Origin: a virus
Lineage: Duplodnaviria; Caudoviricetes
Direction: 5' to 3' (one strand)
IMG/VR virus record: IMGVR_UViG_3300020379_000976
Location: 1 to 50,307 of that record
DNA: 50,307 nucleotides
The translations under genes were made by a program, and so were the position numbers. The notes beneath the pieces were generated by a model. It did not search any database, was not told the DNA's origin, and saw only the letters and a list, made by a program, of their open reading frames with translations. Below, piece after piece: positions 4,971 through 11,526 of the stretch (the stretch's first letter is position 1; each line of letters starts with the position of its first letter).

Positions 4971-5381
4971 ATGAAAAAAAAATTTAAAGATACTGCAGTT
5001 GGAAAGTTTTTATTAAACAAGATTCCAGCTGTAGTAGGATCAATAGCCAGTGGCACACCAGCCGGTGGTATTATAGAAGCTATAATAGGTAGTAGCGAAA
5101 TGTCTGATGGTGATAAACAAATTGCCTTAGAAAAGCTAAAACTTGAAAGAGCCGAAATAGATGGGACAACAGAAAGATGGGTTGCGGATGCGAGCTCAGG
5201 AGCATGGCTTGCGGCTAATGTTCGTCCTTTAACATTAATATTTTTAACAGTAAGCTATGTAATTGGGTGGTACTTAGGTTATCCACTTGATTCAATAACC
5301 GGTTTATTAACAATAGTAATCGGAGGCTATTTCGGGTCACGAGGTGTAGAGAAAGTCTTTGGAAACAAAATGCACAAATAA
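4971..5381 (+). CDS. Holin (3TM/GTA-holin-like)
   Basis: RW.AD..S..WLA.NVRPL motif, TM segments and GGYFGSRG.EK ending; upstream of the endolysin. Confidence 0.7.
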   Translation: MKKKFKDTAVGKFLLNKIPAVVGSIASGTPAGGIIEAIIGSSEMSDGDKQIALEKLKLERAEIDGTTERWVADASSGAWLAANVRPLTLIFLTVSYVIGWYLGYPLDSITGLLTIVIGGYFGSRGVEKVFGNKMHK

Positions 5382-5382
5382 A

Positions 5383-5532
5383 ATGCAAGACTTAAGAATT
5401 TATGGTATAAGTTTAGGTGGTTTTACCTTTTCTATAATGCCAGATATAAATCCACTGCTACAAACAGTAGTATTATTATTAACAATAGTATATACCGTAA
5501 TAGGTATAAAAAACAAATTAAATAATAAATAA
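5383..5532 (+). CDS. Small membrane protein (49 aa), holin/antiholin-like
   Basis: Own translation MQDLRIYGISLGGFTFSIMPDINPLLQTVVLLLTIVYTVIGIKNKLNNK; fills the gap between holin and endolysin. Confidence 0.7.
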   Translation: MQDLRIYGISLGGFTFSIMPDINPLLQTVVLLLTIVYTVIGIKNKLNNK

Positions 5533-5533
5533 A

Positions 5534-5884
5534 ATGCCTTTAAAATATTTTAATGAATCTGAATTCAATGATTTTAAAATGATGAATAAAAAACTTCTAA
5601 ATATGTTAGATAACTTACGAGAAGTATATGGTTCATCAATAAAGATAACATCAAGTTATAGAAGTCCTGATCATCCAATAGAAGCAAAGAAAAAATCACC
5701 AGGTGAGCATGCATATGGCAACGCAGTTGATATTGCAAGTGTTGGGGGTGAAGCTACATTTAAATTAGTTAAAGCTGCTATGGAAGTTGGCTTTACAAGA
5801 ATAGGTGTAAGTAGAAAAAATAATTTTGTCCACGTAGGCATTGGTTATCCTGGTGCTCCTGATATAACTCTTTGGACATATTAA
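5534..5884 (+). CDS. Endolysin, peptidase M15 family
   Basis: I.ITSSYRS..H, H..G.AVDI and FVHV Zn-ligand motifs. Confidence 0.85.
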   Translation: MPLKYFNESEFNDFKMMNKKLLNMLDNLREVYGSSIKITSSYRSPDHPIEAKKKSPGEHAYGNAVDIASVGGEATFKLVKAAMEVGFTRIGVSRKNNFVHVGIGYPGAPDITLWTY

Positions 5885-6709: not shown

Positions 6710-6923
6710 AAACTCTATAGAAGAGTTAATAAAAGTTATGAATAAAAAAATGGATCCAGAAGAATTAGATCCTGAAAAAGTAAAAATATCAGCATCAGCC
6801 TATAGATTAGCTATGGAAGACGCTATTGCTATGATGGCTAAAGTAGAAGAACTTAACAGTGTAGAAAAAGAAGATAATCCTAAAAAACAAGAATTCTTCG
6901 GTGTAGAAGGTCGTATTAAATAA
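6666..6923 (+). CDS. Putative terminase small subunit
   Basis: Helical 85-aa protein coupled directly to TerL; call is positional. Confidence 0.5.
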   Translation: MDVKKTRERLLKAAENSIEELIKVMNKKMDPEELDPEKVKISASAYRLAMEDAIAMMAKVEELNSVEKEDNPKKQEFFGVEGRIK

Positions 6924-9163
6924 TGTATAATCAAACTTTATATAAGGTACACACCGAACATTTATTATCTAAATTAGTTAAAAATAATAATAGATATAAA
7001 AAATTCGAGTATGGTTATAACAAAGATTTAGATTGTGTTGTTATAAGTAAGGACGGTACAATAGGTGAGATATATGAAATACAAGGATTAAAAATTGCAC
7101 TTCCTTCAATACCTAAAAAAATTAACGGTCAAGAACTAAAAAAAGAAGAACAGGTATTTATTCAAACGCCTAAGCCTGCTACACTTAAAAAAATAAAAAG
7201 TATATATAGTTTTAAGTCATATAACGAGGATATAAAAGAAAAGTATTATGAATATATTAATAAAGAGTTTGATTTTCGTTCTGATGGTTACTGGTTCATG
7301 TGCAACGGTGAGCCATGTTACCTCACCGGCTCCCATTATATATACCTCAATTGGACAAAGATCGATGTGGGTTCACCCGATTTTAGACATGCAAACAGAT
7401 TATTTTTTTATTTCTGGGAGGCATGCAAGGCGGATTATAGGTGTTATGGAATGTGCTACCTCAAGAACAGACGGTCTGGTTTCTCCTTTATGGCGAGTTC
7501 GGAAGTTGTCAACGTGGCAACTGTTACCAGAGACGCAAGATTTGGGATACTTTCAAAGACTGGAGGAGACGCGAAGAAGATGTTCACGGATAAGGTTGTC
7601 CCAATTTCCACGAACTACCCGTTCTTTTTTAAACCAATACAGGATGGCATGGAGAGGCCAAAGACAGAACTATCGTACAAGGTACCATCGAGAAGGCTCA
7701 CAAGAAAGACAATACAATCAACCTCCGCGGGCACCGAAGAGAGTGATCAGGTGGGACTTGATACCACCATCGACTGGAAGAATACAGGTGACAATTCCTA
7801 CGACGGGGAGAAATTACAGATCCTCGTCCATGATGAATCGGGCAAGTGGGAGAAGCCGGACAACATTCTCAATAACTGGAGGGTCACAAAGACGTGTCTC
7901 CGTCTCGGTTCGAAAATAGTTGGTAAATGTATGATGGGGTCTACGTCTAACTCACTAGATAAAGGCGGCGGTAATTTTAAAAAAATTTATAATGACTCAG
8001 ATCTTACAAAGAAAAAACGAAATCGCAATGGGCAGACTGCTAGTGGACTATACGCTTTGTTCATACCTATGGAATGGAACTTCGAAGGATTCATTAACAA
8101 GTTTGGTTTTCCTGTCTTCGACACTCCGGAAACTCCGGTTAAAGGAATTGACGGGGAACTTATCTACAACGGAGTTATCGATCATTGGGAGAATGAAGCA
8201 GATGGGCTCAAAGATAATGCCGATGCTTTAAACGAATATTATAGACAGTTTCCTAGGACTGAAAAACATGCATTTAGAGATGAAACAAAAGAATCTATAT
8301 TTAATTTATCAAGAATATATGAACAGATAGATTTTAATGAAGAAATGGTTGCATCAGGATATGTAACAACAGGTTCTTTTCAATGGAAGAACGGTGTTAA
8401 AGATACACAAGTACAATTCTATCCTAATCCTCATGGAAGATTTAGAATATCTTGGATACTTCCAACGGATATGCAAAATAATATAGAAGTTAAAAATGGT
8501 ATTAAATATCCAGGCAATAAAGCTTTTGGTGCTTTTGGATGTGATAGTTATGATATAAGTGGAACAACAGATGGTGGTGGTTCGAATGGATCATTACACG
8601 GATTAACAAGTTTTTCCTTATCACCAGATGTCCCTAAATCACAATTCTTTTTAGAATATATTGCAAGGCCACAAACAGCTGAAATATTTTTTGAAGATGT
8701 ATTAATGGCAATAATATTTTATGGTATGCCAATACTTGCAGAGAATAATAAGCCAAGATTATTATATCATTTGAAAAGAAGAGGTTATAGAGGATTTTCT
8801 ATGAACCGTCCAGATAAAGCTAGAAATAAATTATCTGTAACAGAAAAAGAATTAGGTGGTATACCTAATACTTCAGAAGATATAAGGCAAGCTCATGCAT
8901 CCGCAATAGAATCTTACATAGAAGAAAATGTAGGTATAACAAATGAGGAGCACGGCAGAATGTATTTTCAAAGAACACTTGAAGATTGGTCTAAGTTTAA
9001 TATAAACAATAGAACAAAGTTTGATGCTTCAATAAGTAGTGGTTTAGCTATAATGGCTTGCCAAAGACATTTATATGCTCCAAGAGCAGAAAGACAAACA
9101 AGAAAGATAGATTTTGGATTTTCAAAATATAATAATTCAGGATTAAAAAGTAAAATATTATAA
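6923..9163 (+). CDS. terL: Terminase large subunit
   Basis: Walker A-like LKNRRSGFS, Walker B LVHDESGKW, coupling motif GST, nuclease GCDSYD and FDASISSG. Confidence 0.9.
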   Translation: MYNQTLYKVHTEHLLSKLVKNNNRYKKFEYGYNKDLDCVVISKDGTIGEIYEIQGLKIALPSIPKKINGQELKKEEQVFIQTPKPATLKKIKSIYSFKSYNEDIKEKYYEYINKEFDFRSDGYWFMCNGEPCYLTGSHYIYLNWTKIDVGSPDFRHANRLFFYFWEACKADYRCYGMCYLKNRRSGFSFMASSEVVNVATVTRDARFGILSKTGGDAKKMFTDKVVPISTNYPFFFKPIQDGMERPKTELSYKVPSRRLTRKTIQSTSAGTEESDQVGLDTTIDWKNTGDNSYDGEKLQILVHDESGKWEKPDNILNNWRVTKTCLRLGSKIVGKCMMGSTSNSLDKGGGNFKKIYNDSDLTKKKRNRNGQTASGLYALFIPMEWNFEGFINKFGFPVFDTPETPVKGIDGELIYNGVIDHWENEADGLKDNADALNEYYRQFPRTEKHAFRDETKESIFNLSRIYEQIDFNEEMVASGYVTTGSFQWKNGVKDTQVQFYPNPHGRFRISWILPTDMQNNIEVKNGIKYPGNKAFGAFGCDSYDISGTTDGGGSNGSLHGLTSFSLSPDVPKSQFFLEYIARPQTAEIFFEDVLMAIIFYGMPILAENNKPRLLYHLKRRGYRGFSMNRPDKARNKLSVTEKELGGIPNTSEDIRQAHASAIESYIEENVGITNEEHGRMYFQRTLEDWSKFNINNRTKFDASISSGLAIMACQRHLYAPRAERQTRKIDFGFSKYNNSGLKSKIL
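7248..7919 (+). CDS. Nested +1-frame ORF in terL: predicted lipoprotein with R/S-rich tail
   Basis: MNILIKSLIFVLMVTGS-C lipobox-like N-terminus, A-rich upstream context, 223 stop-free codons coinciding with G/C-ending TerL codons. Confidence 0.7.
   Translation: MNILIKSLIFVLMVTGSCATVSHVTSPAPIIYTSIGQRSMWVHPILDMQTDYFFISGRHARRIIGVMECATSRTDGLVSPLWRVRKLSTWQLLPETQDLGYFQRLEETRRRCSRIRLSQFPRTTRSFLNQYRMAWRGQRQNYRTRYHREGSQERQYNQPPRAPKRVIRWDLIPPSTGRIQVTIPTTGRNYRSSSMMNRASGRSRTTFSITGGSQRRVSVSVRK
7992..8231 (+). CDS. Second nested +1-frame ORF in terL (79 aa)
   Basis: G/C-ending TerL codons continue through the ORF and revert to A/T-ending just after its stop. Confidence 0.5.
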   Translation: MTQILQRKNEIAMGRLLVDYTLCSYLWNGTSKDSLTSLVFLSSTLRKLRLKELTGNLSTTELSIIGRMKQMGSKIMPML

Positions 9164-9165
9164 TA

Positions 9166-11526
9166 ATGGCAGAAGCTACAGGATATACAACTCAATTTCC
9201 CAGCCAATCGGTTGATGATGCTACAAAAAATAGCGAAAAATACGGATTGGAAGTGGCTAGAGGTATAAAAAATGAGTGGTTTAGAAAAAGCGCCGGAACA
9301 GGTAGATTTCTTCAAAACCAACGAGAATTCCATAGACTAAAATTATATGCTAGAGGTGAACAATCAACACAAAAATATAAAGATGAATTTTCTATAAATG
9401 GCGATTTATCTTATTTAAATCTTGACTGGAAACCAGTACCTATAATTCCAAAATTTGTTGATATAGTTGTAAATGGTATGCAAGATAGACTATTTACAAT
9501 TAAAACATTTGCACAAGATCCATCATCTACTAAAAAAAGAACTGATTTTGTAGAAATGATGCTAGAAGATATGAATACACAAGACTTTATTAAAGAAGTT
9601 GATTCAAAACTAGGATTAAATGTAGAAAATTTTTCTGAAATGCAAATACCTGAAAGTGATGAAGAATTAGAACTTCATATGCAAATAGGGTACAAACAAT
9701 CTATTGAACTTGCTCATGAACAAGCTATTGATAATATTTTTAAAAGAAATAGTTACTACGAACTTAAAAAACGTTTAGATTATGACCAAACTGTTTTGGG
9801 TATATCTTGTGCTAAGCACACTTTTAATAATACTGATGGTATTAAACTCGAATACGTAGATCCAGCTAATTTAGTATATTCATATACAGAAGATCCTAAT
9901 TTTCAAGATGTATATTATTTTGGCGAAATAAAACAAATAAAATCTAACGAACTTAAAAAACAATTTCCTGGTTTATCAGATGAAGAGTTTGAGGATTGTA
10001 TAAAAAGATCTGGTAAAACTAATCAATACGATTATACTAATAATGATTCAAATGATTCTTATGATTCTAATACATTAACAGTATTATATTTTAACTGGAA
10101 ATCCTGGGAACAAAGTGTTTTTAAAATAAAAGAAACATCTTCTGGTGCTAAAAAAGCAATTAAAAAAGATGATAAGTTTAATCCACCTAAAGATCAAAGA
10201 ACAAGATTTGAAAGAGTAGCACAAGCAAGAGAAGTTATATATGAAGGTGTTATGGTTTTAGGCGCTAATAAACTTTTAAAATGGCAGAAAGCTGAGAACA
10301 TGGTTAGGCCTGATTCAAATGTTAATACAGTCATGATGAACTATGTTGTTAGTGCACCTAGATTTTATAAAGGAAAAATTGAAAGCTTAGTTAGTAGAAT
10401 GGTTACATATGCTGACTTGATACAACTAACTCATTTAAAATTACAACAAGTAGTACAAAGAATGACACCATCTGGTGTATTTGTAGATGCAGATGGATTA
10501 TCTGAAATAGATTTAGGCAATGGTACAAATTATAATCCACAAGAAGCATTAAATTTATATTTTCAAACTGGATCTATTATAGGTCGCTCAATGACTGTAG
10601 ATGGAGATATGAACCCCGGTAAAGTTCCTATTCAAGAATTACCTGGTGGGGGAGGACAACAATCTACACTTTTAATTCAAACATATAATTATTATTTAAA
10701 TATGATAAGAGATGTTACCGGATTAAATGAAGCAAGAGATGGGTCAGATCCAGATCCTCACGCTTTAGTAGGGGTACAAAAACTAGCGGCTGCAAATTCT
10801 AATACAGCCACAAGACATATACTGCATAGCTCAATGTATATAACTAGCGAATTAGCAGAAGCAATATCTATAAGATTAAAAGATGTGCTTACTTATCATC
10901 CACAAAGAGATGTATTTGTTAAAAGTTTAGGTAGATTTACAGTGGGAGCATTAAAAGAATTAGAAAATGTGCATTTGCATGATTTTGGTGTATTTATTGA
11001 GTTAGACCCTGATGAAGAAGAAAAACAATTAGTTGAAAACAATATACAAATAGCTTTATCAAAAGATCAAATACATTTAGAAGACGTAATAGATATTAGA
11101 TCAATAAAAAATATAAAGTTAGCTAATCAATTATTAAAGTATAGAAGAGCTAGAAAAGCTGCTGCAGATCAAATGAAAGCAGAAAGAAATATTGCTGCTC
11201 AATCGCAAGCTAATGCACAAGCAGCACAAGCCGCTGAACTTGCAAAAGCTCAAGCTGAAAGTGTAAAAGTTGAATCAAGAATGAAGCTTCAGGAAGCACA
11301 GAAAAACTTTGATATACAAAAACTTGAAACAGAAGCTAGAACAAAAAAAGAGTTAATGCAATTTGAGTTTGATTTAAACATGAAATTAAAACAAATGGAG
11401 TTAGATTCAAAAGAAAAAATGGAACTTAGTAAACCTGTACGAAGTGCAAAACCTTCTAAGCCATTTGAATCTAAAGGTAACGATGTTTTAGGTGGAATTG
11501 ATCTTTCAAGATTTGAACCTAAATAA
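9166..11526 (+). CDS. Portal protein
   Basis: Follows TerL; 786 aa; W.PVPIIPKFVDIVVNG and IRDVTGLNEARDG motifs; coiled-coil C-terminal barrel. Confidence 0.85.
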   Translation: MAEATGYTTQFPSQSVDDATKNSEKYGLEVARGIKNEWFRKSAGTGRFLQNQREFHRLKLYARGEQSTQKYKDEFSINGDLSYLNLDWKPVPIIPKFVDIVVNGMQDRLFTIKTFAQDPSSTKKRTDFVEMMLEDMNTQDFIKEVDSKLGLNVENFSEMQIPESDEELELHMQIGYKQSIELAHEQAIDNIFKRNSYYELKKRLDYDQTVLGISCAKHTFNNTDGIKLEYVDPANLVYSYTEDPNFQDVYYFGEIKQIKSNELKKQFPGLSDEEFEDCIKRSGKTNQYDYTNNDSNDSYDSNTLTVLYFNWKSWEQSVFKIKETSSGAKKAIKKDDKFNPPKDQRTRFERVAQAREVIYEGVMVLGANKLLKWQKAENMVRPDSNVNTVMMNYVVSAPRFYKGKIESLVSRMVTYADLIQLTHLKLQQVVQRMTPSGVFVDADGLSEIDLGNGTNYNPQEALNLYFQTGSIIGRSMTVDGDMNPGKVPIQELPGGGGQQSTLLIQTYNYYLNMIRDVTGLNEARDGSDPDPHALVGVQKLAAANSNTATRHILHSSMYITSELAEAISIRLKDVLTYHPQRDVFVKSLGRFTVGALKELENVHLHDFGVFIELDPDEEEKQLVENNIQIALSKDQIHLEDVIDIRSIKNIKLANQLLKYRRARKAAADQMKAERNIAAQSQANAQAAQAAELAKAQAESVKVESRMKLQEAQKNFDIQKLETEARTKKELMQFEFDLNMKLKQMELDSKEKMELSKPVRSAKPSKPFESKGNDVLGGIDLSRFEPK

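Follow-up and report, generated by a model that had tools for sequence, protein, structure and literature searches.

The terminase large subunit gene (terL) of an uncultured phage almost certainly contains a second protein-coding gene, overprinted in its +1 frame and held open by selection. The phage is represented by IMG/VR record IMGVR_UViG_3300020379_000976, whose 50,307 bases (31.6% guanine plus cytosine, GC) make up the window analyzed here. The embedded gene, an open reading frame (ORF) that we call ORF1, overlies TerL codons 109 to 332. Judged from the encoded protein, export of its product is well supported. What the product does is more tentative: the reading that we place first, a late envelope factor, probably lipid anchored, that helps to break the outer membrane at lysis, falls a little short of an even chance when taken as a whole chain. 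Behind it we rank, in order, a non-lipidated exported factor, a receptor-masking protein, and an outer-membrane spanin (o-spanin) encoded far from its partner.

Given the phage's own codon use, 13.5 stops would be expected in the 223 codons of ORF1 and none is seen (exact probability of no stop, 6.8e-11), which bears out the proposal of an earlier sequence-only reading that this frame is real. When the region's own codons were shuffled among synonymous sites, only 3 of 20,000 shuffles stayed open. The GC content of terL at third codon positions is 0.53 across codons 110 to 330, compared with 0.16 and 0.13 outside, but the avoidance of +1 stops goes beyond mere higher GC because the use of NTA codons (N, any base) depends on the next base: at Leu, Ile, and Val sites they account for 8 of 15 codons when a pyrimidine follows and for 0 of 19 when the next base is a purine and a +1 stop would result. 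The longest +1 run in the 20 other plus-strand genes of the window is 69 codons, and ORF1 is the only lipoprotein-like long ORF on its coding strand. As first read, the overlap extends across two TerL motifs that we take to be Walker A-like (computed position, 7463 to 7486) and Walker B-like (7823 to 7843).

The sequence-only reading had staked its case on related terL genes sharing the open frame, and many do. Four scans and two annotated records gave 316 loci; after 11 (9 partial, 2 with N) and 42 duplicates were dropped, 264 distinct terL rows remained, the window included. ORF1 is open in 145 of these rows and not open in 119; the scan queries were carriers of the frame, and the proportions are not population frequencies. 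IMG/VR contains some 8,000 to 10,000 terL-bearing stretches. Past TerL 141, the first +1 stop falls at 145 to 198 in the 119 rows and at 225 to 332 in the 145, with none between, and the carrier cut at TerL 225 was chosen after this gap was visible. Carriers comprise 44 rows of the window's own clade (A+; TerL identity, 72 to 97%) and 101 rows outside it (B+; 63 to 71%), the non-carriers being designated B-. Clusters were built at 90% DNA identity. Stop counts refer to 11 clade-A, 67 B+, and 89 B- clusters, and the hydropathy and codon tests to earlier labels (53 open and 104 closed group-B clusters) that predate the transfer of 14 clusters to B+. Between TerL 121 and 220, no +1 stop occurs in the clade-A clusters against 45 expected, nor in the B+ clusters against 245; in the B- clusters the ratio of observed to expected is 0.84 to 1.08. 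Since the labels are defined on this stretch itself, more weight attaches to the gap and to the features that accompany the open frame. Among the relatives only the +1 frame stays open, and the remaining four alternative frames retain stops.

Possession of ORF1 has changed repeatedly. On a tree of TerL outside the overlap (177 rows), the carrier label changes 13 times, with at least 9 changes forced by well-supported branches. Between the carrier L054 and its non-carrier sister L046, DNA identity is 0.96 over codons 1 to 60, 0.72 to 0.85 over codons 61 to 300, and 0.86 to 0.92 beyond, a pattern that looks like the swap of an ORF1-bearing segment. The carrier and non-carrier sisters L209 and L184 likewise lose identity over the ATPase segment (terL codons 61 to 300). 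The long +1 frame is absent from five cultured or annotated relatives (elemoF, phi46:3, phi38:1, Gundel, and MW202828), in which the longest runs are 39 to 87 codons. Within 6 kb upstream of terL, differences in gene content are linked to lineage only, and no gene that replaces ORF1 was found there. The gene terL is mosaic in this group as well as double-coding, and trees built on it, a standard marker for phage phylogeny, are affected.

Could the frame be open by chance, through import of a GC-richer segment by recombination or through a constraint acting on DNA or RNA, with no protein made? Segment swaps do happen, synonymous change in the body of ORF1 is unsuppressed, and the product has neither family nor fold, all of which would suit that account. 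Against it stand the dependence of codon choice on the next base, the rarity of open shuffles, the opening of the +1 frame alone, and the leader, start codon, and hydrophilic body that go along with the open frame; local RNA folding over the ORF1 stretch is ordinary. We regard the absence of a protein as very improbable. The frame is open beyond chance given the TerL protein and codon use, and the encoded amino acids, hydrophobic in the leader and hydrophilic in the body relative to the null, appear to be under selection. Contigs from RNA libraries also cover the stretch, although assembled contigs indicate neither frame, strand, nor level.

The leader of ORF1 is very probably a Sec signal. 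In clade A, the +1 product over TerL 116 to 125 is more hydrophobic than its own codon-use null in 11 of 11 clusters (mean z, 1.5). The open group-B leader lies instead at TerL 130 to 139 and exceeds the null in 53 of 53 clusters (mean z, 2.1), compared with 64 of 104 among closed rows (z, 0.35). Clade A falls below the null at TerL 130 to 139 in 10 of 11 clusters, and the two leader registers, both of which run up to a cysteine, are exclusive. An ATG stands 12 to 45 codons upstream of the cysteine in 44/44 A+ and 96/101 B+ rows but in only 31/119 non-carrier rows. The window's own ATG is common to its closest relatives only; the start of most clade members is displaced upstream by about 14 codons. 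The basic n-region, h-region, and cysteine described in the sequence-only reading are thus present, with the cysteine 12 to 45 residues from the start as in lipoproteins, but the h-region of the window taken alone is no more hydrophobic than a random shadow frame (z, 0.8, a level reached by 22% of nulls). Similarly, the A-rich upstream context with A at -3 exists without being distinctive: A makes up 60% of the 15 bases that precede the ATG, and the start context is ordinary because 19 of 23 ordinary starts checked are alike.

Lipidation of the cysteine and cleavage by signal peptidase II are likely, though with less assurance than export through Sec. The clade-A cysteine is kept in 44/44 rows at a position, TerL 126, that takes at least 7 different residues outside the clade. 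In group B, the cysteine derived from conserved TerL Met140 is uninformative, and a second cysteine requiring a rare NTG Leu codon occurs in 57/67 B+ against 34/89 B- clusters. These cysteines favor the earlier proposal of a lipoprotein, but the lipobox does not follow the consensus [LVI][ASTVI][GAS]C given in the consulted parts of PMC6139136, which also describe deviant boxes among spanins. The window's T-G-S-C departs from it at -3 and -2, with the -2 Gly forced by TerL Trp124; position -1 is occupied by Ser in 32 and by Leu in 12 of the 44 clade-A rows, and group B has Thr, Ile, or Leu there. Such boxes would suit a product that is exported and not lipidated, either a soluble periplasmic chain cut by signal peptidase I or an inner-membrane anchored one, acting as a lysis-timing factor, a decoy, or a modulator of envelope stress. 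A signal peptidase I site would likewise be compatible with the small residues that follow the cysteine (Ala at +2 in 11/11 clade-A clusters; Ser-Gly in group B). The invariance of the clade-A cysteine, the enrichment of the second one among group-B carriers, and the precedent of off-consensus spanin boxes nevertheless make a non-lipidated product unlikely. The acidic signal K-(D/E)2 after the cysteine, which marks surface lipoprotein export in Bacteroidetes (PMC5080379, in the part consulted), is lacking: no Asp or Glu occurs at +2 to +7 in any of 145 carriers, an absence largely forced by TerL.

Beyond the cysteine, the sequence-only reading had contrasted an Arg-, Ser-, Thr-, Pro-, Trp-, and Gly-rich body with Leu-, Ile-, Lys-, and Met-rich shadow frames, and this contrast is confirmed: the first set accounts for 50% of mature residues, compared with 10% in the +1 shadows of seven other window genes, and the second for 16%, compared with 50%. 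The Arg/Ser/Gly tail noted at the same time occurs in the window and is missing from many relatives. Hydrophilicity of the body exceeds the null in clade A (z, -4.2) and open group B (-3.2), compared with -0.2 in closed rows. Synonymous change in TerL beneath the body is not reduced (ratios of 1.0 to 1.5) and is raised in parts, so that there is no site-specific conservation, and the end of ORF1 varies from TerL 225 to 332, leaving 85 to 207 residues after the cysteine. Taken together, the length, hydropathy, and sequence data indicate selection for an anchor, for a minimum length, and for low hydrophobicity, but not for a specific sequence. No C-terminal membrane segment was found in any of 145 carriers, the best 18-residue hydropathy being at most 0.96 (A+) or 1.42 (B+) against 2.3 to 2.9 in u-spanin-like (unimolecular spanin) controls.

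Searches for a fold or family gave little. AlphaFold yielded no fold for ORF1, and no fold search was made because the predicted local distance difference test score (pLDDT) was only 33. Pfam and PHROGs hold no family for the product (DUF4402, at an E value of 0.01, is below the cutoff). The 18 relatives recovered by protein search are read as copies of this frame called as genes in other assemblies and are not independent support. In the ESM Atlas, the best match scored 0.83 and the nearest named cluster, LPAM_1, scored 0.79; these are leads only.

Embedded lipoprotein genes are already known, lambda Rz1 lying in the +1 frame of Rz. Rz1, which belongs to the embedded two-component spanins (PMC6139136), resembles ORF1 in being a lipoprotein-type gene wholly within another late gene, out of frame and overlooked by annotation. 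ORF1 differs in that its host gene encodes the packaging ATPase and not an inner-membrane spanin (i-spanin), its product is two to four times longer, it lacks conserved sequence, it is dispensable across lineages, and it has two alternative leader positions. The parts of that survey consulted place embedded lipoprotein genes in 182 of 677 phages, always inside the i-spanin gene, and do not contain the word "terminase." A literature search, with most subscription papers and supplements outside its coverage, found no report of a gene nested in flavobacterial terL. New here is a second selected +1 frame, described below.

The suggestion that ORF1 supplies a missing spanin fares poorly in its simple forms. 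ORF1 is not a u-spanin as judged by its architecture: u-spanins (T1 gp11 type; here phrog_5885 and the L189 family) resemble it in having a lipoprotein signal at the N terminus and some 85 to 200 periplasmic residues, but ORF1 fails the comparison because the C-terminal membrane segment is missing in 145/145, and it also has no predicted strand-rich fold. As an o-spanin it is weak. The host gene is terL, with no membrane-plus-coiled-coil gene nearby in the 50-kb fragment, and the unsuppressed synonymous change and variable end reveal no conserved periplasmic sequence for a partner. A widely separated two-component system, in which the partner is a membrane-anchored coiled-coil protein elsewhere or ORF2, might find its partner in two complete carrier genomes that possess a membrane-plus-coiled-coil gene lacking an adjacent lipoprotein gene; one of these genes weakly matches the phrog_7686 Rz-like spanin (E value, 0.0014). 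However, non-carriers have similar genes too, no homolog was found in the window or in five partial clade-A records, the ORF1 C terminus offers no conserved partner site, and ORF2 has no membrane segment. We consider a separated o-spanin quite improbable.

A more indirect relation to spanins is suggested by the distribution of other genes. We surveyed 50 long records, 38 to 100% complete (26 non-carriers, 23 carriers, and 1 unlabelled), for u-spanin-like genes, assigned by architecture only as those with a lipobox and a C-terminal membrane segment. They occur in 5/26 non-carrier and 0/23 carrier records, as members of phrog_5885, a possible flavobacterial u-spanin family that is listed with unknown function. 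A further set comprised 18 records reached via lipoprotein genes, 10 of them holding terL; among those 10, all four u-spanin records lack the ORF1 frame, and the six with a 217-residue lysis-cassette lipoprotein include four with the frame intact, one with the leader and an early stop, and one without the frame. A second u-spanin-like family is found in the non-carriers L189 and L221; the L189 protein had no match in 10 long records. Within this phage group, u-spanins have so far been found only in phages without ORF1, and no stand-alone lipoprotein was found in two complete carrier genomes. Because the u-spanin bearers form two clades, the exclusion counts as two events, where the base rate is close to one half, and on these two events the replacement of a spanin by ORF1 is compatible with the data. 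The u-spanin architectures themselves lie at L328:6838-7326, L331:9928-10398, and L189:4001-4411.

Several points weigh against a lipid-anchored lysis factor. In addition to the off-consensus lipoboxes, ORF1 has no conserved residues and no C-terminal anchor with which to engage a partner. Positive charge in the carrier body (6.8 and 5.8 per 100 residues) is not raised over that of closed shadows (8.7), which speaks against a cationic-peptide mechanism. The u-spanin bearers belong to two clades only, and a scan found no u-spanin in two non-carriers that are 98% complete. The 217-residue lipoprotein stands directly behind the endolysin alongside an intact ORF1 frame in 5/7 records, G008 included. 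Finally, the window is a 50-kb fragment, and a spanin could lie outside it.

Two other lysis-related proteins invite comparison. The disruptin phiKT gp28 (bioRxiv 10.1101/515445, consulted in part) is, like ORF1, basic and a candidate for acting on the outer membrane in a phage that has no evident spanin, but it is an amphipathic cationic peptide of 56 residues, and ORF1 has a signal. Selection on ORF1 for a cationic or amphipathic character was considered and rejected, neither charge nor amphipathy being above the null, so that ORF1 does not behave as a disruptin. The 217-residue lipoprotein of the G008 family shares with ORF1 a lipoprotein signal, about 200 hydrophilic residues, and the lack of a C-terminal anchor; unlike ORF1, it is stand-alone and conserved in sequence, and no homology between them was found. 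Its G008 copy (L343:6191-6844, minus strand) has an Arg/Asn/Pro-rich tail, lies directly behind the M15 endolysin gene, and has 349 relatives and no family.

The late lysis factor that we tentatively favor would work as follows. The +1 frame, with its start codon, selected hydrophobic leader, and selected hydrophilic body, would encode an exported protein made from the late mRNA that bears terL, downstream of the holin and endolysin genes. The leader would direct the product through Sec and the cysteine would be lipidated; without an acidic surface-export signal, the product would presumably stay on the periplasmic side. Our guess is that the product needs no specific surface, what counts being an anchor and an unfolded chain of some 85 residues or more. 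With the wall gone, such a chain could extend across the periplasm or crowd it and could weaken the outer membrane, in place of the u-spanin of some non-carriers. Such a role would bear on how "spanin-less" Bacteroidota phages break the outer membrane; section 15 of PMC6139136, which we consulted in part, reports no spanin in 13% of surveyed phages.

The traits of ORF1 might also suit a receptor-masking or exclusion lipoprotein that, acting from the inner side, binds the phage receptor or shields it, protects progeny from debris or blocks superinfection, and is swapped as hosts change. T5 Llp and T1 Cor are receptor-blocking envelope lipoproteins of this sort, and ORF1 resembles them as an accessory phage lipoprotein of the envelope; they differ in being small and folded, in having stand-alone genes, and in being made early or during lysogeny. 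The lipoprotein-like leader, the dispensability of ORF1 with its at least 9 to 13 toggles on the tree and the apparent L054/L046 swap, and the raised synonymous change in parts of the body would all agree with masking. On the other hand, there is neither a conserved binding surface nor a fold, a late-gene position is ill-suited to exclusion, and the surface-export signal is missing throughout (again largely forced by TerL). On balance we find receptor masking improbable.

A second +1 frame, ORF2, lies further along terL and is likely a gene under selection, as suggested by its stop and codon patterns. The stretch TerL 346 to 412 is open in 11/11 clade-A, 50/67 B+, and 62/89 B- clusters, against 0.6, 7.7, and 11.5 expected, and between TerL 361 and 400 the +1 stops seen versus expected are 0 versus 12 (A+), 22 versus 73 (B+), and 19 versus 89 (B-). 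Among non-carriers, TerL 361 to 400 is the strongest stop deficit along the gene in 20-codon windows (0.21 to 0.23 of expectation; next lowest, 0.47). ORF2 is thus independent of ORF1, since non-carriers keep it, and probably older, since it is open in most relatives without ORF1. In clade A, synonymous change over ORF2 is 0.032, compared with 0.065 to 0.174 in other stretches, and TerL Leu379 is encoded as TTG, which gives an ORF2 cysteine, in 11/11, 42/53, and 71/104 clusters against a background of 6 to 13%. RNA structure was rejected as the cause of this codon bias: the consensus is weak, double changes occur in 3/53 pairs, and folding is within the range of synonymous recoding. Neither a signal peptide nor a membrane segment was found in ORF2; Pfam and PHROGs gave no family for 77 sequences, the ESM Atlas gave no match, and AlphaFold gave one long helix with an uninformative predicted template modeling score of 0.30.

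It is conceivable, though unlikely, that terL of a widespread marine flavobacterial phage group doubles as a two-gene envelope cassette consisting of an older, small helical ORF2 and a spanin-replacing lipoprotein, which would have arisen with two different signal registers, would require no more than an anchor and a long unfolded chain, and would be toggled by recombination of terminase segments; if so, it would represent a sequence-independent way to break the outer membrane. Whatever its function, ORF1 offers a rare opportunity to trace, across hundreds of natural genomes, how an overprinted gene is born, drifts in length, is lost, and is transferred. The gene that it overprints encodes a phage enzyme that ranks among the most conserved, and the recoding of this host gene is visible.

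Table 1. Coordinates of the two overlapping genes, their parts, and neighboring features in the window
Feature	Positions	Strand	Remarks
Lysis cassette	4971..5884	+	holin 4971-5381, 49-residue membrane protein 5383-5532, M15 endolysin 5534-5884
Terminase large subunit (TerL), host gene of both overlaps	6923..9163	+	746 residues; phrog_6681, E value 1.6e-160
In-frame stop and A-rich leader ahead of the ORF1 ATG	7233..7247	+	A at -3
ORF1, overprinted gene, likely exported product	7248..7919	+	ATG, 223 residues; stop avoidance, open in 145/264 distinct terL genes
Predicted signal peptide	7248..7298	+	17 residues; basic n-region, h-region over TerL 116-125
Cys18, putative lipidation site	7299..7301	+	TGT; made by TerL Met126 and a pyrimidine
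Hydrophilic, basic body, predicted disordered	7302..7919	+	hydrophobicity z -4.7; net charge +26, isoelectric point 11.7; pLDDT 33
ORF2, second +1-frame ORF	7992..8231	+	79 residues, TerL 357-436; A-rich leader; no signal peptide

Profile matches to Pfam and PHROGs identify a holin (phrog_3427), an M15 endolysin (phrog_894), a GroES-like protein, the terminase large subunit, a portal, and structural proteins in the window (Table 1). We infer that the window comes from an uncultured flavobacterial podophage with a marine flavobacterial host because the closest cultured terminases are those of Elemovirus (45% identity to the window TerL) and of Pachyviridae and Pervagoviridae phages of Cellulophaga and Tenacibaculum (30 to 38%). 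The sequence-only reading had seen no spanin in the window's lysis cassette, which ends 1.36 kb upstream of ORF1; no lipoprotein gene lies beside the holin and endolysin there. A search for an internal promoter found none. Two terminator-like hairpins lie on the minus strand at 7722 to 7740 and 6752 to 6772 (0.8 expected by chance). At terL codon 184, the Walker A Arg, non-carriers use CGT in 74/89 clusters though AGA dominates elsewhere, which makes it the strongest codon outlier of that group.

PMC8776804 assigns u-spanins to two other flavophages; Table 3 of the same paper gives only endolysins for Gundel and Calle. Exported, unannotated proteins of 180 to 210 residues lie near or beside the endolysin at L082:6177-6722 (elemoF gp32), L354:283-882 (phi38:1 gp84), and L081:1485-2108, each with a cysteine after the h-region in an off-consensus box. 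A module at L317:8678-12363 and L324:5381-8842 (G001 and G002), near a DUF5675 gene, encodes a membrane-plus-coiled-coil protein, a secreted thioredoxin-like protein, a 608-residue protein carrying a type IX secretion tail (PF18962), and an exported protein of 346 residues that ends in Phe.

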